64,000 nt of DNA, taken from assembly GCA_019637395.1 (NCBI GenBank), contig JAHBVR010000012.1, forward strand, positions 129,842-193,841. The letters are read 5' to 3'. The notes below the pieces were generated by a model that saw only the letters and a list, made by a program, of their open reading frames with translations, searched no databases and was not told the origin of the DNA. The DNA comes from Vulcanimicrobiota bacterium (GTDB lineage: Bacteria > Vulcanimicrobiota > Xenobia > Xenobiales > JADMJV01). Made by a program: the position numbers and the translations under genes. Below are positions 36,996 to 54,598 of the stretch, in pieces. Every line of letters starts with the position of its first letter. Position 1 is the stretch's first letter.

Positions 36996-37002
36996 TCCCC
37001 AT

Positions 37003-37078
37003 GAAAGGGGATGGAGTTCCCCAAGACCGCCGCGCCATGGCTGATGACTCCTACCTATCTCTCGGTTAGGATGAAATG
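37003..37078 (+). promoter_or_regulatory. fluoride riboswitch (crcB RNA motif)
   Basis: GGGGAUGGAGUUCCCC...ACCGCCGC...GCUGAUGACUCCUAC matches the crcB-motif consensus (GGCGAUGGnGUUCGCC...AACCGC...CUGAUGACUCCUAC) and lies immediately upstream of crcB. Confidence 0.9.
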
Positions 37079-37080
37079 TT

Positions 37081-37461: not shown

Positions 37462-37579
37462 CCGGCCTCCGCGTTCCAAACAGGACAGGCGTCCGACCGC
37501 CTGAGGATATTAGAACCTCGTCGCGGTGCCGTTTTTGCGTTAGCCTGAGAGCAGAAACAACGAATGGGAAACCAAGGCT

Positions 37580-37903: not shown

Positions 37904-38355
37904 GCCCCTCCCCCGGATTGACTGCGAATGAGCCCCTCAGCCAGACGGACCAGCTCGCCGGGATGCTCCGACTGAGGGCGACAACACCAGCAGAAACCGG
38001 GAGAAAAGAAAGCGGGCCGGTAGTCACTGCAGGGCGGCCCGGGATGAGTGCCGTTCTCGTCAGCGCGGGGCTCCGGGATGTCCGAGGGGGAGGCGGCGAC
38101 TTGCTCCTGCAGACGCCAGTTCACCACCCCCGTTCCGATCCAGGAGAGCACCCAACCCTCGCCATCCGGGCGGATCAAAGACAGCTCGGCCAGCTTGTGC
38201 AGACGCTGTAAGAAAGCCCGGCGCCTGCGCAGCGGCTGGGCTCGCTCTAAATGCGCGGTGGGCACCCGGGGAAAATGGTAAAGGAGAAATAGCTGCTGAA
38301 AGTCTTGGAGGCCGAGGTGGCGACCCAGCACGGCAAAAGCGTGGTGATATTTCAC
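37900..38355 (-). CDS. hypothetical protein
   Basis: 151-aa ORF overlapping neighbours by 4 nt on both sides. Confidence 0.4.
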   Translation of the reverse strand: MKYHHAFAVLGRHLGLQDFQQLFLLYHFPRVPTAHLERAQPLRRRRAFLQRLHKLAELSLIRPDGEGWVLSWIGTGVVNWRLQEQVAASPSDIPEPRADENGTHPGPPCSDYRPAFFSPGFCWCCRPQSEHPGELVRLAEGLIRSQSGGGA

Positions 38356-38921
38356 AGGCTATAAATCCCGTTGCGTGACTGTGGCAGCGGGGGCAATCGC
38401 CAGCCGCCGTCCAGGATAGGTCCGCGCTGGACTCGCGGCAGAGAAAGCAACTGGATCTGATAACTCAACTGAAAATCCAGCTCGGCCACACGGTCGCGAA
38501 CAGCTTCGAGGTCCTGGCCCCAGGCGAACAGTCCCTCTCCATCGACTAACAGCACTCCCTCCGAACCGGCTACCGAAAACGGTCCGGAGCGGGGAACCAC
38601 GGCAATCTGCAGGCCATCCACCACTCCCGCTTCGTGCCAATAGTGCGCTCCCAACAAGGTCGACACCGACTTCAGAAAAAACACCACCGGCGCCGCCGTA
38701 GCTTTATGCACCGCCCGGTAAACGGAATGCCCCTCGCCTTCACGCGGCAGGGTCAAAATCTGTTTGGGAGCCAACTTCAGTCGACCCGGATGATACTGGA
38801 AGATCCGTAAGTTCTCATCCAGAGCCAGAGAGAGTCCGAAATAATGACCGGAATTCTGGGGTAGACGATTCCAAATCTCCAGGGCCTGGTGCAGGGGATT
38901 GTTGTAGCGTTTGCGTCTCAT
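38352..38921 (-). CDS. hypothetical protein
   Basis: Start taken at MRRKRYNN (38921); ~190 aa. Confidence 0.45.
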   Translation of the reverse strand: MRRKRYNNPLHQALEIWNRLPQNSGHYFGLSLALDENLRIFQYHPGRLKLAPKQILTLPREGEGHSVYRAVHKATAAPVVFFLKSVSTLLGAHYWHEAGVVDGLQIAVVPRSGPFSVAGSEGVLLVDGEGLFAWGQDLEAVRDRVAELDFQLSYQIQLLSLPRVQRGPILDGGWRLPPLPQSRNGIYSL

Positions 38922-39109
38922 AGTAAGTCCTCTCGAGGGTGAATTCCGCCGGGCGAGAGACACAAAAAAACCTCCCGCGCGCGACGGGAGGTTTCCGGGT
39001 CCAGTTTTAGATCGTTAAGCCGGACACGCACCATCCCGAGGGTCCAGGCAACAACACAGGCTCATCGGGATGATCAACACCCCCCGAGTATAGGTTCGGG
39101 AGGAAACAA

Positions 39110-39487
39110 GTGTCAAGACTCCAGAATGAGACGCGTAGTATGACCAGCAGCGAATTTTTCTCGCAACTTAACTGCGCCGCCGAGCATCTCCCCTATGTCG
39201 CCATCACCGAGTCCGGCGAAAAGCTCTTCCGAGCCCTGTTGGCCGGGCAGGAGGTCAACCACTTCTTCGCCGTCATCGAGCGGGTCTTTCAAGAAGGGGA
39301 CGAGGAGACACAGAATCTGTGCGTGGTGGGCTTGTTTGAATACCTGCAAAATAAGAACTATCGGGAAGGCGATCCAGATCTGGTGGAACGCCACCTGGGC
39401 CCGCTGTCCTTGTGCGCCTGGTCCAAGCTTATCGAAGGCTGGACCGGTCCGGGAGTACGCACCATAGCGCAGTGGCGGCGGGAATGA
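39110..39487 (+). CDS. hypothetical protein
   Basis: 125-aa ORF, GGGAGG RBS region upstream. Confidence 0.5.
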   Translation: MSRLQNETRSMTSSEFFSQLNCAAEHLPYVAITESGEKLFRALLAGQEVNHFFAVIERVFQEGDEETQNLCVVGLFEYLQNKNYREGDPDLVERHLGPLSLCAWSKLIEGWTGPGVRTIAQWRRE

Positions 39488-39511
39488 CCTCGCGAGAGGA
39501 GCGCGCGGGTT

Positions 39512-40624
39512 CTAAAAGCTAAGCAGGCGGCGGAGACGTTCTTCGACATCATCGGAGGTAAAGGGGAGGCGCTCCAGCGAGCGCATTGACCGGCCGTCGC
39601 TGCCGGGTTCCCAGAGGATACGGGTGACCTCCAAGGGGTGCTGGGTATAGTAGTCCCATTGCGAGCCCCACCTATCCTGCTCGCTCACCTCTTGCATAAA
39701 GTCGGGGCAGCCGGCTGACTCCAGCACTTCCAGCGAATTCAAGCCCGTATGTAATCGGGCTAATCGCCGCGATCGGTCGGGAATCCTTTGCGGAAAGACT
39801 GGTAGAACCGTGGTTTCTTCCGCTTCCCAGCCAGGCTCGAAAGAATAACAGGCCGGCCCCGGCTCCAGTCCATTCAGGGAAGCCAGCACCAAACACATAG
39901 TGGCCAGCGGCTCCTGGGTGGTTCGATGGAGTTCGGGCAAAGCGTGGCAGGCGGTCGAACTTCCCTCCCTCGATTCCCCGCCGCGCCACAAGGCCTGCAC
40001 CAGCGGAACCAGTCGCTCGATTTTCTGCCGCTGGATGACTCCCAGCACTCCCAAGAAGGTAGAAATATCCTCATAGGGTTCGTCGCTTTTCAGAAAGCTC
40101 TCGGCAAACTGCTGCTCGACCTCTCGAGCGAAGTCCCCCGTGTGAAGCTCACCCCGAGCCAGGTTCAAGGAAAAACGCTCTCCCCAGGCTGGCATCACCG
40201 AGAAATAACGTTCTCCTTGATGGCTGAGAAAAAATGTCAGCGCTGCCTCGGCCCAGGACATACCGGCGGTGGTAAGCTGAGCGGTCGGGGCGAAAACCCC
40301 TGGGGGACCCTCGGGTGGGTCCCCCAGGGGATGCACCACAGAGATACGGACGGATTCGCTCCCTGTTGGAGCCAGGGCGATCAGTTGGCTATGATTCCAC
40401 CCGTGGGTCCGGATCACCAGCCAGCCGTCATCCGCCAGGTAGAGTTCTCTGGGCGAGAGTTCCCCTTCAGGTTGTGCGCGCTCCCAAAGTACCCGCCCCC
40501 GCGAATCCAGCAAGCGGTAACGAAAATTCCGCTGGTGGCCATGTTCGCGGGGGTCGGGAGAGCGAGCCTCAGCCCGATATTCACCGGAGCAAACTTCGAG
40601 GTCAGGATAGTTCACACGGATCAT
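39512..40624 (-). CDS. hypothetical protein
   Basis: 370-aa ORF with GC3 bias. Confidence 0.5.
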   Translation of the reverse strand: MIRVNYPDLEVCSGEYRAEARSPDPREHGHQRNFRYRLLDSRGRVLWERAQPEGELSPRELYLADDGWLVIRTHGWNHSQLIALAPTGSESVRISVVHPLGDPPEGPPGVFAPTAQLTTAGMSWAEAALTFFLSHQGERYFSVMPAWGERFSLNLARGELHTGDFAREVEQQFAESFLKSDEPYEDISTFLGVLGVIQRQKIERLVPLVQALWRGGESREGSSTACHALPELHRTTQEPLATMCLVLASLNGLEPGPACYSFEPGWEAEETTVLPVFPQRIPDRSRRLARLHTGLNSLEVLESAGCPDFMQEVSEQDRWGSQWDYYTQHPLEVTRILWEPGSDGRSMRSLERLPFTSDDVEERLRRLLSF

Positions 40625-40634
40625 AGGGGCGCAG

Positions 40635-41882
40635 CTAGGTCGTGAGGTTCAAGGTGGCCGGACTCAGAGAAAAATGAATGGTGGCTCCTCGATTGACGGC
40701 TCCCTCAGCGTAAATCCTGCCATTATGCCGGTGAATGATACGCCCCACAATAGCCAGGCCGATCCCGGTTCCGGGGAATTCGTCGGCTCGATGCAGCCGC
40801 TGGAACGGTGCAAACAGCTTGGAGGCGTAATCGGGATCAAAGCCCGCGCCGTTGTCGCGGAGTTGAAAGACGCGCTGGCCCCCCTCCTGGCGGGCTTCCA
40901 GGCGAATGTCCGCTGGTTGGACGTCGCGGGTGAACTTCCAGGCGTTGCCCAGCAGGTTCTCCATCACCACCCGCAGCAAACTCTCATCGCCATGGCAAAT
41001 GAGGCGGTCCTGGATGGTCACTTGAACTTGACGCTGGGACTCGCTGTCCCTGGCTCGCAGCTCCTCGACGACTTCGCGAGCCAGTTCCGAGAGGTCGACC
41101 GGCCGGAAATTCAGCTCTGCCCGGGTCACCTGGGAAAGCTTCAGCAGGTCATCGATCAATTCGGACATCCTGTGGGCGGCTCCGCAGATGCGGTCCAGAT
41201 AGGCCCGGCCGTCCAGACCCTCCGGATAGCTTCGCTGCAGGGCCTGGCTGAACCCCAGGATACTCCGCAAAGGGGCACGCAAATCGTGGGACACGGAATA
41301 ACTGAAGGCTTCCAGTTCCTGATTCGCTTCCTTCAATTTCTCCAGGGTCTCCGCCAGTTCCGCCTGGCTTTGTTGCAACTGGCGATTCTTACGCACGGTG
41401 TCCTCGAAAGTAGAAACCAGCAGGCTGAGAATCTGCTCCTTATCCGAAGTGATGGCAAATCTGCGACCCAAAAAGACGATTTCGTTGGCGTCCTGCAGGC
41501 CTCCATTGCGCAGCCTGTGGGTCTCCAAAATATTATTGACCCGCGCAACCAGATCAGCAGCCTCGTAGGGCTTGGTGAGAAAGTGGTCAGCGCCGCTTTC
41601 CAGACCCTGAATGACATCCATCGGATTGGAAAGAGTGGTCAACAAAATAATCGGAACCCGTTTGTGGGCCGGACTCGCCTTCAATTGCCGGCACAGCTCA
41701 TATCCCGTCATGCCCGGCATGATGATGTCCGAGATGACCAGGTCGAAGGATTCAGCCCCAAGGCGCTCCAGGGCCTGCTCCGCGTTGAAGGCGGCGGTGA
41801 CGGCAAACTCCTCTTCCTCGAGAATCAGGCGCAGTTCCTCAGCCTGCGTGGCGCTGTCCTCGACGACCAGAATTTTCGTCAT
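40635..41882 (-). CDS. response-regulator receiver fused to histidine kinase (REC-HisKA-HATPase)
   Basis: N-terminal REC (ILVVEDSATQ...DIIMPGMTG...K), HisKA VSHDLRAPLRSI, HATPase N/G boxes; last gene of the che operon. Confidence 0.85.
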   Translation of the reverse strand: MTKILVVEDSATQAEELRLILEEEEFAVTAAFNAEQALERLGAESFDLVISDIIMPGMTGYELCRQLKASPAHKRVPIILLTTLSNPMDVIQGLESGADHFLTKPYEAADLVARVNNILETHRLRNGGLQDANEIVFLGRRFAITSDKEQILSLLVSTFEDTVRKNRQLQQSQAELAETLEKLKEANQELEAFSYSVSHDLRAPLRSILGFSQALQRSYPEGLDGRAYLDRICGAAHRMSELIDDLLKLSQVTRAELNFRPVDLSELAREVVEELRARDSESQRQVQVTIQDRLICHGDESLLRVVMENLLGNAWKFTRDVQPADIRLEARQEGGQRVFQLRDNGAGFDPDYASKLFAPFQRLHRADEFPGTGIGLAIVGRIIHRHNGRIYAEGAVNRGATIHFSLSPATLNLTT

Positions 41883-42916
41883 CTCTGTTCACCTTCCAGC
41901 ATCATTCTCAATCGCCGAGCCAGGCCGGCGGGGTTCAAGGAGTCATCCACCAGCCCCTCCTTCAAGGCCGCACCGGGCATCCCGAAAACAACCGAAGAAC
42001 TCTCGTCTTGGGCGAGAATCGTCCCGCCGGCCTCGCGAACGGACCGCAATCCTTCTACCCCATCTCGTCCCATACCCGTCAAGATGACGGCCACCACGGA
42101 CCTCCCGAACACTTGAGCCACCGAGTGAAAGAGATAGTTGGCCGAAGGTCGGAATCCCTGAATCAGAGGCGAAGGGTCCAACTGGATGGTCAGGTTGGGG
42201 GCGACGCCCAGGTGAAAGCCTTCGGCAGCGATGTAGACCTGGCCGGCGCGCAGGCTCTCTCCCGCGACCGCCGGCGCCACCGATAGGCAACCGACGGTAT
42301 TGAGCCAGGCAGCAAATCCCTCGGTAAAGCCCGGGGAAATATGCTGGACCACCAGGATGGGAAGGGAGAAGCCAGCTGGCAATTCCGAGAGAATTCGGGC
42401 CAGCACGGCCGGACCGCCGGTGGAAGCCGCCATGGCCACCACCCGCGCCCGCCTGACGGTTGGCCTCCGGGCTGGAGAGGGGGGACGGCGCTCCGAGTGA
42501 TCCCATCGGCGCACGACCTTTACCTGAGACATGGACTTGACGGTATTTACAAATCTGCGGGCCAGCAGTTCAAAGTTTTCAGCCTGCGGCCCCGGGGGTT
42601 TGGCAATCACGGTGAGCGCGCCCACGCCAAGAGCGCGCATAGAAATCTCGACCTCGGAAGTCCGCACGCTGGCCGATACGATCACGATAGGGGTAGCCCG
42701 TTCGGCCATAATCTGGCGAGTGGCCTCGAATCCATCCACTCCCGGCATGCTGAGATCCATGGTGATCACATCGGGTTTTAAAGCCCGGGTCATGGCGACC
42801 GCCTGTGTGCCGTCGGCTGCCTCGCCCACCACCACCAGCTCGGGATCGGAACGGAGTAGCTCCACGATCAACTGGCGGGCGGTAGGAGAATCGTCGGCAA
42901 CCAGGACACGAATCAC
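41879..42916 (-). CDS. cheB: chemotaxis protein-glutamate methylesterase CheB (REC + methylesterase)
   Basis: REC domain then CheB esterase motifs (AIGASTGGP-like MAASTGGPAV, catalytic S/H/D region). GTG start overlaps cheA stop (GTGA). Confidence 0.9.
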   Translation of the reverse strand: MIRVLVADDSPTARQLIVELLRSDPELVVVGEAADGTQAVAMTRALKPDVITMDLSMPGVDGFEATRQIMAERATPIVIVSASVRTSEVEISMRALGVGALTVIAKPPGPQAENFELLARRFVNTVKSMSQVKVVRRWDHSERRPPSPARRPTVRRARVVAMAASTGGPAVLARILSELPAGFSLPILVVQHISPGFTEGFAAWLNTVGCLSVAPAVAGESLRAGQVYIAAEGFHLGVAPNLTIQLDPSPLIQGFRPSANYLFHSVAQVFGRSVVAVILTGMGRDGVEGLRSVREAGGTILAQDESSSVVFGMPGAALKEGLVDDSLNPAGLARRLRMMLEGEQR

Positions 42917-45108
42917 AACAAGCGCGCGACCGTTTCCAGGAGCTGGCTCTGATCGAAGGCCTGCTTGGGCAGGTAGGCATCGGCGCCAGCCTGCAATCCT
43001 CTGGCCTTGTCTTGCTGGCTCTCCAGGGCCGTCACCAGCACAAAAGGTAAATTGCGCCAACGCTTGGATCCACGGATGGCTTCGCACAACGCGATGCCGT
43101 CCATGGCCGGCATTTCCACGTCAGCCACGACCAGGTCAGGCTCGACTTCAGACAGTTTATGCCAGGCGTCCAGGCCATCGGCGGCCACATGGACATCGTA
43201 GCCCGCTGCCTCCAGAATGCTCTTCTCCAGACTGCGGGTGGTCACCGAGTCGTCCACTACCAACAGGCGCCGCCGAGTGACCGAGAACTGGTCGTCCCCG
43301 GCCGGGCGCAGACTTCCCGCCGGCTTGAGACCCAGGGCGGTATGCACCAGGTCGCTGATGCTCAGGATGAGCGCAATATGCCCTGTGGACAGGATGGTGG
43401 CGCCGGCAAAGTGACGCACCCGCCGAAACCGGCTTCCCAAACTCTTGACCACGAACTCTTCCTCAGCCAGCAAAGCATCCACGGCCAGGGCTATCTGTCT
43501 TTCTCCCCAGGCCACCACCACCAGAGACTGCTTGCTCCGCGGAGCGGGGAAGCGTTCCAGGCCCAGGCCCAACACCTCCAGCAAGGAAATGACGGGCACC
43601 GGGGAGCCGTCGTTGAGAAGCACATCGCGCCCCTCCACGGAAGCGAATTCCTCAGGATCGATCCGGAGCATTCGCCGTACGCAAGCGGTGGGCAGAGCGT
43701 AGGACTGTCCCCCGGCTTTTACCAACACAGCCCGAATGGTACTGAGAGTCAGCGGTAAGTTGAGCACAAAACGGCAACCCCGACCCTCCTCGGAAAAGAT
43801 CTGCACACGGCCTCGCAGGGCTTCCACGCGGTTCTTGACCACGTCCAGACCGACGCCGCGTCCGGACAATTCAGTGAGCTTGGGGGCGGTCGAGAATCCG
43901 GGAAGAAAGACCAGCTGGGCCAGTTCCAACGGATCCTCAGGCACCACCAGGCCGCGGCGCCGGGCCTGTTCCCGAATGGCACTCAGACTTAGCCCCCGGC
44001 CGTCATCGGCCACGACCACCTCGACGCCCTCGCCGCGCACGGCGGCCGCGACCGTAACGATGGAGCGCGCCGATTTGCCGAGCGCGAGGCGCTCTTGGGG
44101 AGGCTCCGCGCCATGATCGACGGCGTTGCGCACCAGATGCCAGAGGGGATCTTTCAAACTTTCCAGGATGGATCGGTCCAGTTCCGTGCGCCGACCCCTC
44201 AAAACCAGTTGCACTTCTTTACCAGCGGTGCGGGCCAGGTCACGCACGGTCCGCTCCAGACCCTCACATCCATCTCCAAAGGGAAAGAGCCGAACCCTGC
44301 GGATTTCGGCTTCCAAAGGCTCGGCGGCCTGCTCCAGAAAGCGGTTGTCAGCGGCTGTTCGGGCCGCCAGCTCGTCAATACGCCGTTCGAGCTGTTTGAG
44401 GTAGTCCCGGGTCCGTTCCATCGCTTGAAGCGCGCGCCGAGGCAGCCATTCCTGGGCCGCCGAGGGACCGGTAAACTTGCGCAGAGGCTTCTCCAGGCGG
44501 GTCCACTCGGCGCTGCAATGCTGAATCACTTCTCGCAAAGCCTGCAATTCATCCAGGCGGGAAGCCGAGCGACGGCGGGCCACCAGCAATTCCCCACCGC
44601 GATCCATCAACGCGTCCAATTTATCGGCGGCGACCCTGACGAAGACGTCCTTTCTGGAAAGCGCCGGCGGAGCCGGCGTCTCCGCTGGCGCGGGCTCGGC
44701 CGTAGCCGGCTCCGCCTGCGGCCGGCCCGGCCTGGGCAGCAGGCTTTGCAGGGGGCTGCCACTCAGGGACTGCTGGGAGCGGAGACGCCGGGCGGCCTCC
44801 TGTAGAGCATCGGAGTAGGCGAACAACAACTGGAAGAACTCGGAATCGGGCTGGCGTTTTCCCTCCCGGGCCTGAACCAGCGTGTCTTCCAGAGCATGGC
44901 AGGCCTGCTCCAGGACCGGCTGATTTACGGAACGCGAAGCCCCTTTGAGGCTATGCAAAGTGCGCAAAAGCGTCTGCCAGAGCTCGGCGCGGGATGCCTC
45001 GGGCCCCTTTTCCAGCGCCAGCAGATCCCGCTCAAAAACTCGGGCGTGTTCCTCGAGTTCGGCCACAAAGGTAACCATCAGGCGTTGGATCAGCTTCTCT
45101 TTATCCAC
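42913..45108 (-). CDS. cheA: chemotaxis histidine kinase CheA with C-terminal CheY-like receiver
   Basis: HPt (HSLKGASRSV), dimerisation, HATPase, CheW-like domain, C-terminal REC (LLVVDDSVTTR...DVEMPAMDG...K). Confidence 0.9.
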   Translation of the reverse strand: MDKEKLIQRLMVTFVAELEEHARVFERDLLALEKGPEASRAELWQTLLRTLHSLKGASRSVNQPVLEQACHALEDTLVQAREGKRQPDSEFFQLLFAYSDALQEAARRLRSQQSLSGSPLQSLLPRPGRPQAEPATAEPAPAETPAPPALSRKDVFVRVAADKLDALMDRGGELLVARRRSASRLDELQALREVIQHCSAEWTRLEKPLRKFTGPSAAQEWLPRRALQAMERTRDYLKQLERRIDELAARTAADNRFLEQAAEPLEAEIRRVRLFPFGDGCEGLERTVRDLARTAGKEVQLVLRGRRTELDRSILESLKDPLWHLVRNAVDHGAEPPQERLALGKSARSIVTVAAAVRGEGVEVVVADDGRGLSLSAIREQARRRGLVVPEDPLELAQLVFLPGFSTAPKLTELSGRGVGLDVVKNRVEALRGRVQIFSEEGRGCRFVLNLPLTLSTIRAVLVKAGGQSYALPTACVRRMLRIDPEEFASVEGRDVLLNDGSPVPVISLLEVLGLGLERFPAPRSKQSLVVVAWGERQIALAVDALLAEEEFVVKSLGSRFRRVRHFAGATILSTGHIALILSISDLVHTALGLKPAGSLRPAGDDQFSVTRRRLLVVDDSVTTRSLEKSILEAAGYDVHVAADGLDAWHKLSEVEPDLVVADVEMPAMDGIALCEAIRGSKRWRNLPFVLVTALESQQDKARGLQAGADAYLPKQAFDQSQLLETVARLL

Positions 45109-45113
45109 GGGGC

Positions 45114-46766
45114 CTAGCGTCCATAGCCCGCCAACAACTCTCCCAGCCTGGTCCCGAGCAGGTTCAGATCGCGGGCGGCCCGTTCCGTCTCCTTGGTGGC
45201 GGCCAGATTTTGGGTGGCCACCAGGCTGATGCTCTTCATGGCCTGATGGATTTGCGCCATACCGGCCGCCTGCTGGCCGGCCGAGGCGGCCACCTGAGCG
45301 GCCGACTGAGCGGACTGATTGATGGTATCGGTCAACAGGCGAATGGCTTCGCCCGCCTGGTCGACCACTTTGATGGCGCCGTTAACGCTTTTGGATCCAT
45401 CTTCGGTGGCCATCACCGCACTATTGGTGGCTTTTTGAATGGCGCTCAGAATCTGCCTCACCTGCGAGGTCGCCTTCTTGGACTGCTCGGCCAGCGCCTT
45501 GACCTCGCTGGCCACCACCGAGAATCCTCGTCCGTGTTCTCCCGCTCGAGCGGCCTCGATGGCGGCGTTGAGAGCCAGCAGGTTGGTCTGTTCCGCGATT
45601 TCATTGACGGTGGCAATGATCTCCCCGATTTGCTGAGCCTGCTCCGCCAGCACCAGGATACTCTCGGCCAGGGACTCGACCTGGCCGCGCACCCCTCCCA
45701 TGACCGACACCGCTTCTTCGACCGACTTGCGCCCCACTTCGCCTATCTCAGCGGTCCGCTGCGAGGCATCGGCCACCGCTTTCAAACGGTGGGCGGCCTG
45801 TTCCGAAGTCTGCGTCACCTCGTCCACCGTGGCTACCGTCTGGGACACTCCGGCGGCCTGTTCCTGGGCGCCGGTGGACTGCTGGCTGCTGGCCGCCAGG
45901 ATTTGTTGGGCGGCCGAAGCCAATTCTTGAGAGGTCTCGGTCACCGCTTTCAAGAGCCTGTCTTTGCTCTCTTCCGCCGCTTTGCGCTCGGTGATGTCAA
46001 TAATGGAAGCCAGCACGTGCAGGCCCTCGTCGGTCTTCACCGGATTGAGACCAATCTCTACCGGCACTTCGCGGCCGTCGCGGCGCAACGCGTAAAGCTC
46101 CCGGCCCACTCCCATCGAGCGCTGTTGAGGATTGGCGAAAAAGCCGGCGCGGTGATCCGGGTGGCGGGAACGGAAACGGTCCGGCACCAGCGATTCGATC
46201 GACTTGCCAATCAACTCCCCCCGGCCGTAGCCAAGGATCTGCTCCGTCTGAGCGTTGGCCATGGCGATGATGCCGGCGCGGTCCATCATCAGGATGGCCA
46301 CGGGAGCTGTCTCCAAGGTCAGACGCAGGCGTTCCTCGGCCCGGCGGCGCTCGCTAATGTCGACGATGGAAGCCAGAGTATAAGTTCCGGCTCGGGTGAT
46401 AAGCGGATTGAGACCAATCTCCACCGGCACTTCGCGACCGTCCTTGAGCAGTCCGTAGAGTTCTCTGCCCGCCCCCATGGCTCGGGGAGCCGGGCTGGCA
46501 AAATAGAGGTGCCGGTGTTCCGGATGGCGTGAGCGAAAACGCTCCGGTACAAGCAGTTCAATAGGTCTGCCCAGCAACTCGCGGCGCTCATAGCCGAACA
46601 ATTTTTCCAACAATGCATTTACCTGGACGATCATCCCGGATCCATCCACAGTTAACATCGCCACCGGAATGGCTTCGAGAGCCACTTGCAGTTCCTCGGG
46701 GGAGCCCAGACGCTCGGGACTTCGGCGCGAGCGAGATGGCTTGCTCAAGGATGGGTCGTTGGGCAT
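45114..46766 (-). CDS. cytoplasmic methyl-accepting chemotaxis protein with two PAS domains
   Basis: Two PAS repeats (…[19 protein letters not shown]… x2) followed by MCP signalling domain ([34 protein letters not shown]). No TM segments. Start at 46766 with GGAGG RBS. Confidence 0.85.
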
Positions 46767-46785
46767 AATTTTTCCTCCAATGTTC

Positions 46786-47382
46786 TTATCCACTTTCCTT
46801 TTGATCCACAAAAAGACGGTTGTCGTTCAGCAACTTCGCTCCATCCAGCACCTGCATGGCCTGGCGCGTTACGCCCAGGAGATAACTCCGGGCGGCGGGG
46901 GTTACGCTGGCGGGCGTTTCCAGGATGTCCGCGGCCGGCAGCCAGAAGGCCTCCAGGGCTTCATCGGCCAGAATCCCTAATTCAGGCTGTTCTCGGCCCA
47001 CCACCAGGACGCGGGGCTCTTCGCTGAGGCCTCGACTGGGGAGGCGAAAAATCTTGCGCAGATCCAGAATGCACAAGACCTCGCCTCTCAGATTGGTGAC
47101 TCCGAAAACGAAATCGCCGGCGCCCGGCACCGGAGTAAAGTCGAGCAGACGAATGACTTCGCGCAGGTAGGCGGTGCCGATGGCATAACGTTCGCCTCCC
47201 AAACTGAAGCTGAGCAGGTGATAGTGCTGGCCGCTAGTGGCCTGCGGCAGGGGACGAGCCAGAGCCCGGGCCCGTTCGTCCATGCGGGCCCGGCCCTCGC
47301 CGGCGGGGAGTTCCAAGCTGGCCTCGGCCGCGGCATGGGCTCTGGCCAGGCGCTCGCGCACGGCCTGCCAGTCGATGCTCAT
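46786..47382 (-). CDS. cheW: chemotaxis coupling protein CheW
   Basis: CheW-like domain ([14 protein letters not shown]...[18 protein letters not shown]); ATGA overlap with cheR stop. Confidence 0.85.
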
Positions 47383-48671
47383 AAAGAGGAAAGCTTGCGC
47401 TGACAAGCCTGAACCATAGCTCCGGCACTCCCTCCCTCGCCCCAGCGCAAAGGCTCTTCCGCCGGCAAGACCCGAGCGCAGTCCCGGGCATTGCGAAAAG
47501 CCCGGGCGGCCTCCGCCAGCCGGCCCTGCCCCTCGAGCAGATTGGCCAGTAAAAAGTGAGCAACCACAGCCGATGGGTCGAGGTAGAGAACCCGTTTCAG
47601 AGCCTCCAGCGCCTCTTCCACTTCTCCCTGGTCCAGCCCCAGCATGGCCCTCAAAAAGTGCAGCTCACCGGCCAGGGGGTAACGTTGGCATTGCCGCCGC
47701 GCTTCCGCCAGCAGCTCGGCGGGGGCGCGCTGCTGGAGCAGGCTGCGGAATTGCCGGACTGCCTCCTCCTGAGCCGAAGCAGGCGGGGGGGCCGCCGGCC
47801 TGGGGCGCTTGCGGGGGGCCGGAGGCGCGCTGGGAAGTGAAGGGGCCGGCTGGCTGCGGTGCTGGGGAGACTTGCAGTAGAATACGCCCCATTCTGAGAG
47901 CACGGTGGTGAAAGGAGCCCGCTCGCCCAGGGGAGGGTCGGCCGAACCCGTAACCAACCAGCCGCCCTCGGCCAGCGTCTGGTAAAAGAGTCTGGCCAGT
48001 TGGTCCAAGCAACTACGGTCCAGATAGTAAAGGACGTTGCGGCAGAAGATCAAGTCCACCTTCCGGTTCCAGGGCGGTACTCCGGAAGCCAGACTGTGCC
48101 AGGCAAATCGGGCCCGCCGAACGCGGGGAGACCACAACGAACCGCTACAATGAAACCACTTCTCCAAGACCTGGGGCTCCACCCCGCGCAGAGACCAGGA
48201 ACCATAAGCTCCGCGCTCCGCCTTGCGGAGTGCCTCCCGCGAGATGTCCGTGCCCAATACCGAGCCGGCCAGACCCTCTTCCTCAAGCACGGTCGCCAAC
48301 GAATAGGCTTCCTCGCCCGAAGAGCAACCGGCGCTCCAAACGCTCCACTCATGGCAGCTCCCGCGAGATTTACGCAGTTCCGGGATGATTCGGCTACGCA
48401 GAAATTGAAATTGATTCGGCTCGCGGAAAAAATAAGTCTCTCCCACGGTCAATTCGCCGATCAAATCGTCCAGAGGCAATTCTCCGCTCTCCAGCAGGCG
48501 TTGATACCCCTCGATCTCGGTCACTAAATTTCTTTCCATGGCGCGCCGGATACCGGCTTCGGCCTCCTGGCGCCGGGCTGGAGAGAAAACCAATCGGGTG
48601 TGGTAATTCAAATAAGCCGCCACCTTCTCGAAGGCCGGGTGACTCCAAGCCTGGCTGTCGGTCATGCGCAA
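47379..48671 (-). CDS. cheR: chemotaxis protein methyltransferase CheR with C-terminal TPR-like region
   Basis: CheR SAM-binding core (ETYFFREPNQF..., VWSAGCSSGEEAYSLA) plus ~150-aa helical repeat extension. Confidence 0.9.
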   Translation of the reverse strand: MRMTDSQAWSHPAFEKVAAYLNYHTRLVFSPARRQEAEAGIRRAMERNLVTEIEGYQRLLESGELPLDDLIGELTVGETYFFREPNQFQFLRSRIIPELRKSRGSCHEWSVWSAGCSSGEEAYSLATVLEEEGLAGSVLGTDISREALRKAERGAYGSWSLRGVEPQVLEKWFHCSGSLWSPRVRRARFAWHSLASGVPPWNRKVDLIFCRNVLYYLDRSCLDQLARLFYQTLAEGGWLVTGSADPPLGERAPFTTVLSEWGVFYCKSPQHRSQPAPSLPSAPPAPRKRPRPAAPPPASAQEEAVRQFRSLLQQRAPAELLAEARRQCQRYPLAGELHFLRAMLGLDQGEVEEALEALKRVLYLDPSAVVAHFLLANLLEGQGRLAEAARAFRNARDCARVLPAEEPLRWGEGGSAGAMVQACQRKLSSL

Positions 48672-49108
48672 GTCCGGGAAATGGCCTGCTCCAGACAGTC
48701 GGATTCAGCCTGGGAGAGAAAACGCGCCAAATCATAGATCAAGACCAACCCGTCCGGAAGCCTGGCAATTCCTACGATGACCTCGGCGCCCTGGGCGCAG
48801 CTCTCGATATCCTGCTCCGGGAAGCGGACCAGACCCACAGCCTGATCGGCTCGAATGGCCACCAGGCGGGACCCCGCCCAGGCCAACAAGAGATGATCCG
48901 TGTGGCAGGGTGGGCGCGCCGGCAAGCCAAAGCGGAGCCGAAGATCGAAAACCGGGGCGGTCTGGCCGCGCACGTTCAGCACGCCTTCCACCACAGGGGG
49001 TGAGCCCGGCAGCGGCAGGCTGGAGGCGGAACGGAGAACCTCGCAAACCTGGGCGAGAGGTATTCCGTAGCGGTTTCGATCCAGTTCTATGACGAAGATA
49101 TCTTGCAT
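48662..49108 (-). CDS. cheW: chemotaxis coupling protein CheW
   Basis: 148-aa CheW-like domain; first gene of the operon. Confidence 0.85.
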   Translation of the reverse strand: MQDIFVIELDRNRYGIPLAQVCEVLRSASSLPLPGSPPVVEGVLNVRGQTAPVFDLRLRFGLPARPPCHTDHLLLAWAGSRLVAIRADQAVGLVRFPEQDIESCAQGAEVIVGIARLPDGLVLIYDLARFLSQAESDCLEQAISRTCA

Positions 49109-49282
49109 TTTGCCGCGCCCCTCCGCCCTGAATTCACATTACCAGAGGGCGGAATTAGCCGGCCTGGGAAAAGTCTCCTTCCTCTCTCCATCGACGCCAT
49201 AGCCTATGGAATGGGTTTCGGGCGACCCCGTTAAGTAAAACCTCATCACTTATTCAGACAGTTTTCATCCTGAGCGGATACG

Positions 49283-49931: not shown

Positions 49932-50195
49932 TCAATGAGGCCGATCAGGTTGTCGTTCAACTCTGCCACCTCCGAGGCCGGAATCCACCACCCGGTGGCG
50001 CTCCCCGCCGACCGTCCGCACCGGATAACGATCCATAAATGACTTCTTCACGCGAGCATAGTCCTCGTTGGTAACGGGATAGAAAAAAGGCTGGCCGAGC
50101 AGGCGTGGAGGCCAGCGCCGATAGCCTGATTGGCGAACCAGTTCAAGCTCAGCCGGACCGATCGGACGAAAACACTCTTGCCGCATAACGCGCAT
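49932..50195 (-). CDS. small hypothetical protein
   Basis: 87-aa ORF (…PIGPAELELVRQSGYRRWPPRLLGQPFFYPVTNEDYA…); C-terminal 25 aa low complexity. Confidence 0.4.
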   Translation of the reverse strand: MRVMRQECFRPIGPAELELVRQSGYRRWPPRLLGQPFFYPVTNEDYARVKKSFMDRYPVRTVGGERHRVVDSGLGGGRVERQPDRPH

Positions 50196-50229
50196 TATAG
50201 CACCTCGCTTGGTGCCTGCAGCCCGATGG

Positions 50230-50281
50230 TAACAAAAGAAATAAGTTCGGCATAAGATCGCAAACCTCTGTTTCGATCCGG
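50230..50281 (+). repeat. copy A of a ~55-nt conserved intergenic motif
   Basis: TAACAAAAGAAATAAGTTCGGCATAAGATCGCAAACCTCTGTTTCGATCCGG, ~80 % identical to 54261-54317, same orientation. Confidence 0.5.
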
Positions 50282-50314
50282 AATGCCTATGCTTGGTTCA
50301 TACCAAGGAGGTGG

Positions 50315-50747
50315 ATGATGAAACTTACCCCGCTAGCCAGACAAATCCAGCATTTCGAAAGCCGTCGCGAACTCGAGGGCGCGGAGAAGAAAGAGCTCAC
50401 CAATCCCGAGGATATCCGTAACTGGGTGGACGAATCCTTCGAGAGAACGTGTGCCGAGGACCAGGGCCCCAAGGACTTCGATCCCTTGCCGGGCCGAGTT
50501 TTCAAGACCGGCAAAGGCAGAACTCTAGAAGCCGCCTTCGAGTTGACCGGCCAGCAACGTCATCTGCAGCGCTCGGAGGCGAAATTTCCAGGAGCGCCGC
50601 CTCCTGAAGATACATCAGACGCCGGTGGCGATAGAAGCCTTCTGGTCCTGGTCGCATCCCGACTATCCCCAACTGTTGGAGTGCTTCCGCGTCGATCTGC
50701 AAGACCCCAAAGGTCACTTCTACCAGCGTCTCGAGCTGGGGGTGTAG
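50315..50747 (+). pseudogene. hypothetical gene interrupted by an apparent +1 frameshift
   Basis: Frame 1 (MMKLTPLARQIQHFESRR...) degenerates into Pro/Arg/Ser-rich low complexity after ~50590, while the +1 frame continues protein-like (…FQERRLLKIHQTPVAIEAFWSWSHPDYPQLLECFRVDLQDPKGHFYQRLELGV*) to 50747. Confidence 0.45.
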
Positions 50748-50826
50748 TTCGTAGCCGGCGTCGGAGTCCAACCGCTGGCAGCGGATCTCTGGAGGGGCCC
50801 GGCCTTGCGGCGGGAAGCCCGGAGCC

Positions 50827-51615
50827 ATGACCATCACCCAGAAACGCAAAGAATTTCGGCGTCTTCACGAGTCGGGATGCTTCACTATTCCCAATGCCTG
50901 GGATATTGGTTCAGCACGCTATTTAGAGCATGTTGGATTCAAGGCGCTGGCCACCACCAGCGCCGGCTTCGCCTTCACACGCGGGCGCCTGGACGGGAAG
51001 ATGACGGTGCGGGAAGTAATTACCCATGTTACCGAGCTGGCGGAAGCCAGCCGTCTCCCCCTCAACGTCGACTTCGAAAGCGGCTTCGCGGCCGGCGGCC
51101 AGGAGTTGGCCGACAATCTGCGCCGTTGCGCCGAAGCGGGCGCAGCGGGAATTTCCATCGAGGACAATGCGGGGGAAGATCTCTATGATTTCGAGTCGGC
51201 CGTCGAGCGGATCCGTGTGTCGGTTCGTGCTCTGGAAGGCACGGGCGTAATGCTGGTGGCCCGCAGCGAGGGAATGCTCACCGGCTGGGCCGGTCTGGAC
51301 GAGACGGTGCGGCGGCTGCAGGCCTTCGCCGCGGCTGGCGCCGACTGCCTGTATGCTCCCGGCCTGCGTAGCGAGGAAGAAGTGCGCGCGGTGGTGGCCG
51401 CCTGCGCGCCCAAACCGGTCAACGTGCTGGTCTGGTCTCCCGGATTTACGGTGTCCCAGTTGGCCGCTCTGGAGGTGCGCCGCGTCAGCCTGGGAGCGGC
51501 TCTGGCCAAGGTGGGCTGGGCAGCCGTGATGAACTCGGCTCGCGAAATTTTTGACACTGGCCGATTCGAATCTTTTGGCCAACCCGTAGAGGACATGAGG
51601 AAGTTTCTATGCTGA
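50827..51615 (+). CDS. isocitrate lyase/PEP mutase family protein (methylisocitrate lyase-like)
   Basis: TIM-barrel ICL/PEPM motifs (IPNAWDIGSAR, GISIEDN, KxxxxxAR region). Confidence 0.8.
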   Translation: MTITQKRKEFRRLHESGCFTIPNAWDIGSARYLEHVGFKALATTSAGFAFTRGRLDGKMTVREVITHVTELAEASRLPLNVDFESGFAAGGQELADNLRRCAEAGAAGISIEDNAGEDLYDFESAVERIRVSVRALEGTGVMLVARSEGMLTGWAGLDETVRRLQAFAAAGADCLYAPGLRSEEEVRAVVAACAPKPVNVLVWSPGFTVSQLAALEVRRVSLGAALAKVGWAAVMNSAREIFDTGRFESFGQPVEDMRKFLC

Positions 51616-52424
51616 AGGCCGCACTGGTCTACGATTTCGACGGCACCCTGGCGCGCGGAAACATGCAGGAACATAGCTTCATTCCGGCTCTGCGCCGGGA
51701 GGTTCCGGATTTTTGGGCGCACACCAAGCGCTTCGCCGAAGAACACGACGCCGATGAAGTGCTCACCTACATGCGCTTGATGCTGCAGGAGGCGGAAGCG
51801 CTGGACCAGCCGATTACCCGCGAGTTACTCCAACAACACGGGGCCCGGGTGCCGCTTTTCGAGGGTGTGAGCGATTGGTTCGGGCACATCAATCAATTTG
51901 CGACCCAATTAGGCTTGAGCCTGGACCACTATGTCATCAGCTCCGGCCTGCACGAAATGATCGAAGGATGCGCTATTTTCCGAGAATTCAAGCAGGTTTA
52001 TGCTTCGCGCTATTTATATAACGAAAAGGGTCACGCCAATTGGCCGGCAGTGGCCATCAATTACACCACTAAAACCCAATTTCTCTTTCGCATCAATAAA
52101 GGCATCGAATCAACCTGGGATAACCGCCGCATCAATGAATGGGTTAATCCCGAAATTCGCCCCCTGCCCTTCCAGCATATGATTTTCATCGGCGACGGCG
52201 AAACCGACGTGCCGGCCATGAAAATGGTGCGCCACCAGGGCGGCTATGCGGTGGCCGTCTTCGACCCCGAGAAATTTGCCAAGAACCAGACCACCATCCA
52301 CAAGCTCATTTCAGCCGACCGCTGCAATTACGTGGCTCCGGCTGACTACCGCAAGGCCAGCCAGTTGGATGTGACCATCTGCGGCATCCTGCAGCGCATC
52401 GCCGAGCGCCGAACTACTCCTTGA
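51609..52424 (+). CDS. HAD-like hydrolase
   Basis: VYDFDGTL motif I, FIGDGETD motif IV-like. Confidence 0.7.
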   Translation: MLKAALVYDFDGTLARGNMQEHSFIPALRREVPDFWAHTKRFAEEHDADEVLTYMRLMLQEAEALDQPITRELLQQHGARVPLFEGVSDWFGHINQFATQLGLSLDHYVISSGLHEMIEGCAIFREFKQVYASRYLYNEKGHANWPAVAINYTTKTQFLFRINKGIESTWDNRRINEWVNPEIRPLPFQHMIFIGDGETDVPAMKMVRHQGGYAVAVFDPEKFAKNQTTIHKLISADRCNYVAPADYRKASQLDVTICGILQRIAERRTTP

Positions 52425-53004
52425 GCACCATGTCGATGCACAGTACCGCCCCCAGGATGAGCACGCGAATAGGGTTGTCCGGCGTGACCTCCTCGGAGAT
52501 GGTAACGGCGTAGGTGTCGGCGGTGGTGAACAGCTCTTTGGCCATACCCGCCCACTTCTGCTTCACTTCGGCGTAGACTTTGCCGTCTTTTTCAAATTTG
52601 AACTCGCGGCCACGCCAGGAACCTTTCAAATTACACAGCACCTCATCGTGGGGGCCGAGCACTCCGAAAGAGGCGGTGAGCGAGAAGAACTTCTGTTTGA
52701 AGCCGCCCATGCGGACACCGGCCTCGTTAAAGACATCCACTTTAGAGAGAAACAGGCTGACGCCGCGTTTGACGTTAAGGACCGGCTCGCCCCCCGGCGT
52801 GGTCACGTGAATGTCAAACGGGGTCATGCGCTTGTAGTCACTAAAGCGAAACATTTTGCTGAAGAAGCCCAGATTGGGTTCGCGACAGAGCATAATCGGC
52901 GTTTGTGGATCGTCAGGGTCGAAAATGTCGTAGTTACTGGCCGCCTTGAACAGACCCACATGTTCTTTGACAATAAAGACGTTACGACTGAGGATGTCGT
53001 GCAC
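52414..53004 (-). CDS. LURP-one-related / scramblase-like (tubby C-terminal-like) family protein
   Basis: 196 aa; pattern of short β-strands with FxxK/W repeats typical of LOR/scramblase β-barrel family (assignment tentative). Confidence 0.55.
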   Translation of the reverse strand: MHDILSRNVFIVKEHVGLFKAASNYDIFDPDDPQTPIMLCREPNLGFFSKMFRFSDYKRMTPFDIHVTTPGGEPVLNVKRGVSLFLSKVDVFNEAGVRMGGFKQKFFSLTASFGVLGPHDEVLCNLKGSWRGREFKFEKDGKVYAEVKQKWAGMAKELFTTADTYAVTISEEVTPDNPIRVLILGAVLCIDMVLKE

Positions 53005-53009
53005 AGCGA

Positions 53010-54200
53010 TCAGTTTTCCGCCCGAGGTCCCAGAGAGGACTTGTCGTCAGCCGCCTGGATCCCGGGTGAGCCACCCGCCAGGTAAGGACGATACCATGGC
53101 TGGGGGGAGAGATAGTCGACATTGCAGGAAGCCCTGACCTCATCGGCGGCAATGCGGCCCAGGCGAGCGCCCAGCAAGCCGCCGGCGATTCCGCCGACCG
53201 CCGCGCCCGCTCCCGGCAACAAAGTGCCGATAGCGTAGCCCAAACCTCCGCCTAACGCCGCGCCGCCCACTCGGCAGGCCGGACGCCAGAGGGCGTGCTG
53301 CGACATGGCGGCCAGTTTCTTTTGGCGAGGCGTGGCTTCGGTCTGCGAGCCGGGATAAAGAGTAAGATCGTTGTGAATGAACTGGCTGTTGCCCTCGGCC
53401 AGCAGGCCCTTGTCCTGGAGAGCGGCGCCGCACAGCATGGCGTTGGCGGAAGTCGGCTTCTGCAACAGGTAGGCGAACCATTCCGAGCGCTTGGGAATCT
53501 GTTGCTGGCGGGGAACCACGCTGTTGACCAGGTCGATCACATTACTGTAGCAAGAATTACGCGTGGTATGGTAGGGTGCGTCCGGCCTGGCCAACGAAAC
53601 GTCCAGCGAATTCTCGAGCAGCATTTTCTTTTGCTGGTCGTCGAGTTTGAGTTTGTACATCTGGATGCCCGTACCCAGGCGGCGGCAGGCGCGCTGGACA
53701 CCGTCGGTAAAGCTGCCGAGCTGGAAGACGACGGGGAAATCACCTTTGAAGCCGCGCATGGCGTCCCAGCGCTCGCCTTCGTGCATTTTCGCTTCCACGC
53801 TGAGGACAAGGCGATTGTCTTCGTCGCCGTTAGCGTTGCGCATCGGTCTTTTCTCGTCAAATTCGACAATGAGAAGAGCATGAGCCATGGGAATGCCGGC
53901 CATAAAGGGCGCGCGGGCCAGATACACGTCCTTGACCGCGTTGGTGTCGATGGTTGTGCGCGAGAAACGCGGAGTCCACTCCTTTTTGCTCTGGCTGACT
54001 TCTTCCAGTCCCCACCGCACCCCGTCGATTTCCACGCGCCCGTCGAGATGACGTTTGGCCAGACCGGCGTAACGCGTGGTCGGATCCCAACCTTTGATCT
54101 CCACCTGGTCGGCCGGGGCTTGTTTGTTCTGTTCGGCCGTTCTCGGCTCTTTGTTCTGTAGCGAGCGAACGGGGCTCGGCTGAATGTTGCTGATCCTCAT
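53010..54200 (-). CDS. DUF4105-like protein with C-terminal glycine-zipper membrane segment
   Basis: MAHALLIVEF and YHTTRNSCYSNVIDLV regions resemble DUF4105 (Lnb N-terminal domain); C-terminus GGAALGGGLGYAIGTLLPGAGAAVGGIAGGLLGARLG. Confidence 0.55.
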   Translation of the reverse strand: MRISNIQPSPVRSLQNKEPRTAEQNKQAPADQVEIKGWDPTTRYAGLAKRHLDGRVEIDGVRWGLEEVSQSKKEWTPRFSRTTIDTNAVKDVYLARAPFMAGIPMAHALLIVEFDEKRPMRNANGDEDNRLVLSVEAKMHEGERWDAMRGFKGDFPVVFQLGSFTDGVQRACRRLGTGIQMYKLKLDDQQKKMLLENSLDVSLARPDAPYHTTRNSCYSNVIDLVNSVVPRQQQIPKRSEWFAYLLQKPTSANAMLCGAALQDKGLLAEGNSQFIHNDLTLYPGSQTEATPRQKKLAAMSQHALWRPACRVGGAALGGGLGYAIGTLLPGAGAAVGGIAGGLLGARLGRIAADEVRASCNVDYLSPQPWYRPYLAGGSPGIQAADDKSSLGPRAEN

Positions 54201-54260
54201 GCTTGGGAAACTAAGGGGTCTCCCTCAAACATGTCTGAAAGGGCGCCGGACACCAGCAAG

Positions 54261-54317
54261 TTAACCAAACGAATAAGTTTCGCCTAAGATCGCCAACCTC
54301 ATGTTCGGTTCCACCCG
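54261..54317 (+). repeat. copy B of the ~55-nt conserved intergenic motif
   Basis: TAACCAAACGAATAAGTTTCGCCTAAGATCGCCAACCTCATGTTCGGTTCCACCCGG; see copy A. Confidence 0.5.
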
Positions 54318-54331
54318 GCTATCCTCGAAGA

Positions 54332-54598
54332 ATGAACACAGCTCAACGCCTTCTGGGGCTTGCCGCCCAACTGCACCACTCCCCCGGCCTGACCGTGGAC
54401 GACCTCGACGACTTAAAATTATTGGCCGCCTGTGGTCTGCCGCTACAGGCTCGGCGCGGCCGCTACCGCCTGGGGCTGGAAATCGCCGGCACTCCTCTGG
54501 ATCTGGAGGAAACGCTGGCGGCCACGCTGGCCTTGCTCATGACTTCTTGCGGCCCCGCTGTTGCAACAAAGCGAAATAACGGTATTGTCCCTTCTTGA
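54332..54598 (+). CDS. hypothetical small protein (doubtful)
   Basis: 88-aa ORF immediately after motif copy B; its 3' 62 nt overlap the convergent degP-like gene. Confidence 0.3.
   Translation: MNTAQRLLGLAAQLHHSPGLTVDDLDDLKLLAACGLPLQARRGRYRLGLEIAGTPLDLEETLAATLALLMTSCGPAVATKRNNGIVPS

Follow-up and report, generated by a model that had tools for sequence, protein, structure and literature searches.

Two copies of an intergenic element

The stretch of DNA analysed here, referred to as the window, comprises 64,000 nucleotides of contig JAHBVR010000012.1 from a member of the Vulcanimicrobiota (Eremiobacterota), and it harbors two copies, designated A and B, of a short intergenic element. The copies lie in the same orientation, approximately 4 kb apart, and each precedes a small orphan gene on the + strand. 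The element is assessed below as a candidate promoter-plus-operator module, and the following features delimit the two units.

50229 to 50293, + strand: copy A, the module upstream of the 144-amino-acid (144-aa) gene (alignment of 11 to 13 copies; A-only and B-only profiles)
50318 to 50747, + strand: orphan gene of the 144-aa family, frameshifted (three-frame translation against the intact orthologues P0001 to P0007)
54261 to 54325, + strand: copy B, the module upstream of the 88-aa gene, ending 6 nt before the ATG at 54332
54332 to 54598, + strand: orphan 88-aa gene (50 to 75% identity in 5 other clusters)

The limits of both copies were taken from pairwise alignment with their flanks, which places the beginning of the similarity at (G/T)TAAC and its end at TATGCT in copy A and TATCCT in copy B. 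The initial annotation of this DNA had described a direct repeat of about 55 nt, with two full copies and a third, partial one, and much of this description stands: two same-strand copies are present at the positions reported, with 78% identity over 46 to 51 nt without gaps (a repeat finder returned a 46-nt pair), both are located in divergent intergenic regions 5' of + strand open reading frames (ORFs), and the gene content is as reported. The similarity, however, spans about 65 nt, and neither the third copy nor a T-loop-like motif assigned to the element was upheld. When copy A was used to query the window with copy A itself masked, copy B was the sole significant match (blastn E value of 2.5e-6; nhmmer E value of 6.6e-5), the next-best matches all having E values above 2. 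The similarity also withstood a shuffled-sequence control, in which a consensus of 25 specified bases was matched in 0 of 100 shuffles; the A/B repeat exceeds chance.

A profile built from the two copies detected no further copy in the 64-kb window beyond A and B. The partial third copy proposed at 39007 to 39021 was missed by two-sequence, six-sequence, A-only and B-only profiles, even at E values of up to 100, and its 9-mer core, with one mismatch allowed, occurs 13 times compared with 9.7 times expected in shuffles, which represents no enrichment. Adjoining this rejected copy, at 38966 to 38998, is a GC-rich hairpin situated between an A run and a T run (AAAAAAACCTCCCGCGCGCGACGGGAGGTTT), which resembles a bidirectional terminator. 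The copy counts given here cover the window and the related loci that were fetched; as the 64-kb window holds two copies and about 45 kb of related loci yielded no others, the element does not show the dozens of copies of a repetitive extragenic palindromic (REP)-type element, the trivial explanation that had been foreseen for it.

Orthologous copies and anatomy of the element

A pattern scan of GTDB genomes yielded one chance match and one true copy, the latter being a near-identical element 5' of an intact 144-aa orthologue in a Vulcanimicrobiota (Eremiobacterota) metagenome-assembled genome (MAG; contig L007). The corresponding scan of JGI metagenomes produced seven chance matches and no true copy, and that of viral contigs produced no match. 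A-type copies are present 5' of all retrieved 144-aa orthologues, on seven contigs besides the window (L007, L008, L009, L010, L022, L023 and L025), and B-type copies are present directly 5' of all retrieved 88-aa orthologues, in four others (L018, L019/L020, L021 and L024). The set in which sequence signatures were scored comprises 13 copies, 8 of the A type and 5 of the B type, other alignments having used 11.

A profile built from A-type copies only recovers all B copies (E values of 6e-12 to 3e-3), and one built from B-type copies only recovers all A copies (E values of 3e-14 to 9e-7), with nothing else below an E value of 1 in the 108 kb searched. Because each profile finds the copies of the other type, the A/B similarity is no coincidence of the window; it represents an old paralogy which has been retained in the genomes of several uncultured Eremiobacterota. 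Furthermore, copy B resembles in the alignment the A-type consensus from other genomes more closely than it does copy A of the window, and so is not the product of a recent local duplication.

Among orthologues, and excluding pairs that involve L008, the A element displays 73 to 90% identity (80 to 90% save for one pair), compared with 62 to 75% for the coding sequences and about 50% for the DNA further upstream; pairs with L008 display 64 to 72%. As the element is more conserved than the coding sequence and the DNA above it is at about 50%, its upstream edge is sharp: the 90 nt upstream of it are roughly 50% identical, the level of unrelated DNA, and conservation starts abruptly at the (G/T)T(A/C/T)AC hexamer. 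In A-type copies, conservation among orthologues extends as far as the ATG (50318 in the window), and the distance from element to ATG is constant in the fetched contigs, L008 having a 24-nt leader compared with about 18 nt. B copies are more divergent than A copies (60 to 87% versus 64 to 90% identity). The element tracks the + strand gene in both types, the neighbor on its other side being variable (an 87-aa remnant, tandem repeats, or a DUF4105, scramblase or HAD gene).

Further repeated or conserved non-coding sequences occur next to some of the copies. About nine tandem copies of a 52- to 59-nt unit, which also show higher-order periodicities of 113 and 169 nt, are located directly 5' of the A element in L007 (4744 to 5299) and are not present in the window. 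In L008, two direct repeats of approximately 60 nt (CCCTGAAGGTCAAGTCCTC..AAAACGCGGCGGC) separate the EamA-like genes from the A element (7700 to 7830), within the span of a degenerate - strand ORF. A second conserved non-coding stretch, CTAAGGGGTCTCCCTCAAACATGTCTGAAAGG, lies 5' of copy B in the window (54211 to 54242) and is common to L019 and L021; it probably serves the divergent DUF4105 gene as its leader or promoter, and L019 has kept it despite the loss of that gene.

The sub-motifs recognized within the two copies and the A-unit leader are listed below.

50229 to 50258, + strand: distal sigma-70-like pair of copy A, GTAACA (50229 to 50234), an 18-nt spacer and TAAGAT (50253 to 50258)
54261 to 54290, + strand: distal sigma-70-like pair of copy B, TTAACC (54261 to 54266), an 18-nt spacer and TAAGAT (54285 to 54290)
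50243 to 50259, + strand: tandem direct units of copy A, AAGTTC (50243 to 50248) and AAGATC (50254 to 50259), 11 bp apart; candidate operator (sequence and alignment)
54275 to 54291, + strand: tandem direct units of copy B, AAGTTT (54275 to 54280) and AAGATC (54286 to 54291), 11 bp apart (sequence and alignment)
50263 to 50275, + strand: invariant block AACCTC-N3-TTCG of copy A (AACCnC-N3-TTCG in 13 of 13 copies)
54295 to 54307, + strand: invariant block AACCTC-N3-TTCG of copy B (as for copy A)
50288 to 50293, + strand: proximal -10-like hexamer TATGCT of copy A (TAnnCT in 13 of 13 copies, in the same aligned columns)
54320 to 54325, + strand: proximal -10-like hexamer TATCCT of copy B, exactly 6 nt before the ATG at 54332
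50305 to 50313, + strand: Shine-Dalgarno sequence of the A unit, AAGGAGGTG, 3' of the predicted start and before the ATG at 50318

All 13 copies fit the composite signature AACCnC-N3-TTCG-N12-TAnnCT, and each has an A 7 nt downstream of TAnnCT. All eight A copies read TAnnCT-N6-A, and this invariant A, at 50300 in the window, is the predicted transcription start of the A unit; A-type leaders carry AAGGAGG. The five B copies all read TAnnCT-N6-ATG, with a 6-nt spacer of variable sequence and without a Shine-Dalgarno sequence, and conservation of the 88-aa protein starts at its first residue (M1, N2 and T3 are invariant). Since TAnnCT stands exactly 6 nt before an ATG which lacks a Shine-Dalgarno sequence, the B-unit mRNA is predicted to be leaderless, with the A of the ATG at 54332 as its first base. 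A crude survey of the window for other TAnnnT-N6-ATG starts without a Shine-Dalgarno sequence returned TAACCT-N6-ATG at 29029 (29017 to 29031, + strand) and TATCAT-N6-ATG at 59749 (59750 to 59761, - strand), and there are thus hints that this organism uses leaderless mRNAs.

Above the proximal hexamer, the AACCnC block starts 19 bp upstream of TAnnCT, where a -35 hexamer would be sought. In 10 of 11 copies, the distal pair (TTAACA-N18-TAAGAT) is the top match to TTGACA-N16-19-TATAAT within the 200 nt upstream, and its aligned position does not vary; it matches the -35 hexamer at 4 to 5 of 6 bases, with an 18-bp spacer to TAAGAT. The T2, A4 and C5 of its first hexamer and the T6 of its second are invariant, and the A2 of the second is kept in 10 of 11 copies. 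Should the distal site be the one used, transcription is predicted to start at about 50265 in copy A and about 54297 in copy B. The 11-bp phasing of the direct units is kept in 12 of the 13 copies, that is, in all those which cover it (L025, whose sequence is cut short upstream, does not), while the units themselves vary between AAGwTC and AACTTy and, by hand count, share only 5 to 8 of 11 positions with one another.

No terminal inverted repeat, palindrome or conserved inverted repeat was found in the element, and several other assignments were tried and rejected. A sigma-54 site is contradicted by the spacing, which is GG-N9-GC and not N10, and by the B copies, whose sequence is devoid of any GG. 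The spacings of an extracytoplasmic function (ECF)-type AAC...CGT promoter do not fit, and its would-be -10 falls in variable columns. An anti-Shine-Dalgarno role of ACCUC was dismissed given that the B copies have no Shine-Dalgarno sequence. The motif which the initial annotation had likened to a tRNA T-loop (GTTCGATCC) in fact reads GTTTCGATCC in copy A and GTTCGGTTCC in copy B; ARAGORN reports no tRNA gene in the window, and the bases flanking TTCGAT give no 5-bp T-stem in any copy, which disposes of a tRNA or T-loop relic.

A structured cis-regulatory RNA, likewise raised at the outset, is not supported. At gathering scores, Rfam returned nothing at the copies, its only match in the window being a fluoride riboswitch, and at E values of up to 10 the matches were limited to a ctRNA (14.9 bits; inside copy A but on the other strand) and a SNORD39 (12.6 bits) downstream of copy A, with none near copy B and none credible. 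RNAalifold predicted 0 pairs on 11 copies, and single-sequence folds of the element were unremarkable. A hairpin of copy A (GAUCGcAAAC/GUUUCGAUC) together with an outer stem had initially been favored by G-U wobbles in copy B, but it was rejected, since L008, L010 and the B orthologues disrupt its pairs and do not compensate for them. When the copy-A-derived structure (the outer stem, this helix and a Shine-Dalgarno stem) was imposed on the alignment, 67.9% of the cells pair, compared with 67.6% in shuffles, and the number of compensatory pairs was 1, against a shuffled mean of 1.6.

Downstream genes and the neighborhood of the two copies

The gene following copy A is frameshifted, as had been claimed: three-frame translation against intact orthologues reveals a 1-nt frameshift near 50585 to 50590, the first ~90 codons being in frame 0 and the last ~50 codons (...FYQRLELGV*) in the +1 frame, which runs to a TAG at 50745 to 50747. 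The same broken gene call of 170 aa is present in independent assemblies of the same strain (L001). The 144-aa family comprises only 7 clusters among 5.8 billion proteins, all seven of them intact, and the 88-aa family comprises 6, one of which is sourced to a Candidatus Eremiobacteraeota MAG. Pfam and PDB sequence searches with the two proteins returned nothing at E values of ≤0.01, only isolated marginal matches lying above this value. The AlphaFold2 models have predicted local distance difference test (pLDDT) values of 59.5 (88-aa protein, a low-confidence model) and 55.1 (144-aa protein), and Foldseek searches with these models gave nothing below an E value of 0.35, with winged-helix proteins scattered amid noise. 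No homology was detected between the two proteins by hhalign (probability of 0.04), and they are unrelated.

Pfam assigns the genes between the two copies as had been claimed, and a further match, to an HtrA-type protease, was obtained for a gene after the copy B region.

50827 to 51615, + strand: PEP_mutase (phosphoenolpyruvate [PEP] mutase) gene
51609 to 52424, + strand: HAD gene
52414 to 53004, - strand: scramblase-like gene
53010 to 54200, - strand: Lnb_N/DUF4105 gene

The two modules flank a single conserved neighborhood within this Eremiobacterota (Vulcanimicrobiota) clade, in which, among relatives, the 144-aa gene heads an SNF2/SWIM/PEP-mutase/HAD unit. The left side of L008 is syntenic with the window (an EamA-like pair, a remnant ORF, the A element and the 144-aa gene) and continues with an SNF2 helicase gene (DUF3670) and a 231-aa gene, neither of which is present in the window (L008 8420 to 11673). 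The 231-aa product has no Pfam match and is presumed by us to be a SWIM-type protein by analogy with SNF2-SWIM gene pairs. The same SNF2 and presumed SWIM genes are found in L018 (1 to 3216), with 70 to 77% tblastx identity to those of L008, and are followed there by a 39-codon PEP-mutase stump, HAD, scramblase, the B element, an 89-aa gene, HtrA, an M10 peptidase and RNase PH; from the stump rightward the order is that of the window, with the DUF4105 gene absent. L021, in turn, carries HAD, DUF4105, the B element and the small gene, and L019 served as a further contig in the synteny comparison of the genes between the copies. Based on the synteny of these contigs, the ancestral order is deduced to have been A, the 144-aa gene, (a paralogue), SNF2, SWIM, PEP mutase, HAD, scramblase (-), DUF4105 (-), B and the 89-aa gene. 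The window lineage deleted SNF2 and SWIM (at a gap at ~50750 to 50830), other lineages having lost other genes. In a literature search, no papers on DUF3670 were found and nothing relevant on Eremiobacterota promoters.

The composition of the 4-kb block is unexceptional: its GC content is 0.593, compared with a mean of 0.614 for 4-kb windows (3rd percentile, inside the observed range), its tetranucleotide composition is ordinary, and the GC content at third codon positions of its genes equals that of the flanks. A Pfam scan detected no integrase or transposase in the block. The att-like remnants of an integrated element, which had been offered as an explanation for the repeat, are rejected in view of the relatives, which hold both element types with more genes (SNF2 and SWIM) between them; by its gene order the block is an ancestral neighborhood and not an island or insertion.

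Divergent from copy A, at 49932 to 50195 on the - strand, is an ORF of which only the first ~30 codons (M..QECFRPxGPAELELVRQSGxRRWPPR) are conserved with L008; as the reading frame degenerates beyond this point in both genomes, it looks like the stump of an older gene. Further to the left, a stretch of ~14 kb (~35050 to 49200) separates blocks which are only about 0.7 kb apart in L008, a difference which would be explained either by an insertion in the window lineage or by a deletion in L008. This stretch holds hybrid kinases, a chemotaxis cluster on the - strand (42913 to 49108; CheA-like, a methyl-accepting chemotaxis protein with PAS domains, CheW, CheR and a second CheW) and the fluoride riboswitch mentioned above (36998 to 37060, + strand; Rfam RF01734, 51.2 bits, E value of 2.9e-11), which lies directly 5' of a 126-aa ORF (37081 to 37461), presumably encoding a fluoride exporter.

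Interpretation and comparison with known systems

Among the three explanations which the initial annotation had put forward, the shared promoter or operator is the best supported, and it is favored by the fixed distance to the start codon, the sharp upstream edge, the invariant -10- and -35-like hexamers, the phased repeats, and the recurrence of the element upstream of two unrelated genes in several genomes. We therefore propose that the repeat probably represents two paralogous promoter-plus-operator modules of ~65 to 75 bp, which were anciently duplicated and have been kept before two unrelated small orphan genes in order to co-regulate both. The data establish that the copies are homologous and old, that their position, sub-motifs and spacings are fixed, that they lack RNA structure and that the synteny is ancestral; the transcription starts, the binding of a protein and the co-regulation of the two units are inferred by us from sequence. 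The invariant TAnnCT would serve RNA polymerase as the -10 hexamer. Transcription of the B unit would begin at the A of the ATG to yield a leaderless mRNA, and that of the A unit at the invariant A, which precedes the ATG by about 18 nt (by 24 nt in L008), to yield a short leader with a strong Shine-Dalgarno sequence. The ~60 bp above TAnnCT would present AACCnC-N3-TTCG at about -37 to -25 and, at about -57 to -41, the AAGwTC units with their spacing of one helical turn, and the TTAACA-N18-TAAGAT pair would constitute either a distal promoter or simply a part of this binding platform. The upstream part is envisaged to dock one or more shared trans-acting factors, be it a repressor, an activator or an alternative sigma factor, through which both units would be switched together.

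A more specific version of this proposal can be entertained tentatively, its being correct appearing possible but doubtful. It envisages a hitherto undescribed, lineage-specific circuit of Eremiobacterota in which one dedicated factor, conceivably an alternative sigma factor or else a new small protein with DNA-binding activity, acts on AACCnC-N3-TTCG and AAGwTC, co-controls the SNF2-helicase/SWIM cassette and is autoregulated, the promoter having been copied between genes. The 88-aa protein is a candidate for the autoregulator on the basis of its low-confidence model and non-significant winged-helix matches.

Several points weigh against the promoter-plus-operator proposal. The proximal TAnnCT has no TTGACA-like -35 hexamer at 17±1 bp, each copy holds two -10 candidates which are inseparable on sequence alone, and no stretch of the A copies is less well conserved than the distal -10 (AAGGAT in L008 and GTAGAT in L010). 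No regulator gene was identified for the element, and the winged-helix-like fold matches of the 88-aa protein are non-significant and derive from a low-confidence model. Copy A precedes a frameshifted gene in this genome, and part of the system may be decaying. Finally, the exact-pattern scans of public collections were blind to diverged copies.

The element might alternatively act as RNA, namely as a 5' leader of little or no structure, the transcription of which begins at the distal TTAACA-N18-TAAGAT or further upstream and whose AACCUC...UUCG is bound by a protein or small RNA that controls translation or stability of both mRNAs. This is considered unlikely. The high score of the distal pair in 10 of 11 copies would suit such a leader, as its use would place AACCnC-N3-TTCG at about +5 to +17; A-type conservation reaches the ATG and includes a CCUUGG/CCAAGG stem overlapping the Shine-Dalgarno sequence, and the GAGGU in the A-type Shine-Dalgarno sequence could, by sequence, pair with ACCUC. 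Nevertheless, ACCUC would find no Shine-Dalgarno sequence to mask in the B copies, the TAnnCT-N6-ATG spacing, exact in all five of them, fits a leaderless start better, and the absence of a consensus pair, the uncompensated breaks in the copy-A hairpin and the lack of any Rfam family match all speak against an RNA. A still smaller probability is accorded to descent alone, whereby an old duplication or promoter capture left two ordinary promoters with no shared regulator or regulon. Just two contexts are known for the element, no regulator has been recognized, and the greater divergence of B copies agrees with this reading; yet AACCnC, TTCG, TAnnCT and the 11-bp phased units are invariant in both paralogues, whose coding sequences are only 50 to 75% identical, and independent drift would not be expected to keep the same non-promoter positions in both.

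It is extremely improbable that the copies represent recombination scars or att-like sites, or a REP or miniature inverted-repeat transposable element (MITE) repeat, bounding a mobile or accessory 4-kb block. Such a reading would draw upon the 4-kb distance and common orientation of the direct repeats, the frameshifted gene and variable gene content between them, and the slightly low GC content of the block. Against these stand the relatives, in which both types occupy corresponding gene positions and enclose the same genes or additional ones, the state of the window being an SNF2/SWIM deletion; the block is free of integrase and transposase genes and ordinary in tetranucleotide composition, the copies are only 78% identical, with B nearer to the A consensus of other genomes than to the window's A, and neither terminal inverted repeats or a palindrome nor viral-contig matches were found.

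To our knowledge, almost nothing is known of transcription signals in Eremiobacterota (WPS-2), of which there are very few cultured members. The promoter-plus-operator proposal would provide the first concrete, testable promoter model for the phylum, consisting of a TAnnCT -10 hexamer, a leaderless start and a 60-bp upstream platform, as well as a candidate two-unit regulon flanking the SNF2/SWIM pair, whose bacterial function is not clear. It would also document an old promoter duplication, in which a whole promoter region was apparently copied onto an unrelated gene and long retained. For annotation, the block should not be treated as an island, and the window genome is to be recorded as lacking SNF2 and SWIM and as having a frameshifted first gene.

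Like the attL and attR sites of genomic islands, the copies are direct repeats flanking a few kilobases of mixed-function genes; unlike them, they are accompanied by no integrase or tRNA, are 78% and not near-identical, and were, together with the enclosed genes, ancestrally present in relatives. With REP sequences, bacterial interspersed mosaic elements (BIMEs) and MITEs, the element shares being short, AT-richer, intergenic and repeated in a GC-rich genome, but it differs from them in being limited to 2 copies in 64 kb, in lacking a palindrome or terminal inverted repeat, and in its fixed start-codon distance and orthologous conservation.

Direct-repeat operators one helical turn apart are exemplified by the pho box of PhoB (OmpR family) and by the alphaproteobacterial LexA box, GTTC-N7-GTTC. 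The two AAGwTC units, 11 bp apart and in or adjoining a core promoter, are comparable to these, a likeness which we note as a lead. GTTC-N7-GATC is present in six A-type copies (those of the window, L007, L009, L010, L022 and L023), and the operon that the A unit heads in relatives includes an SNF2 helicase gene, which would suit a DNA damage regulon. In contrast to those boxes, the units are degenerate (GTTT, CTTC, CTTT and GATC) and have no known cognate regulator, and their position, at about -57 to -41 from the proximal -10, is not that of a pho box; GWTC-N7-GWTC, moreover, occurs 5 times in the window, only the occurrence in copy A being inside the element, and so loose a pattern is uninformative.

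The housekeeping promoters of actinobacteria such as Mycobacterium and Streptomyces have a TAnnnT -10 hexamer and little or no -35, and give rise to leaderless mRNAs. The element resembles them in its invariant TAnnCT, which in B stands 6 nt before a start codon devoid of a Shine-Dalgarno sequence and has no TTGACA-like hexamer 17 bp upstream. It departs from them in copy A, which has a normal leader with a Shine-Dalgarno sequence, and in the about 60 conserved bp above the -10, which would be needless in such minimal promoters. The element is, in kind, a lineage-specific cis-regulatory DNA motif, and as such a known kind of thing.

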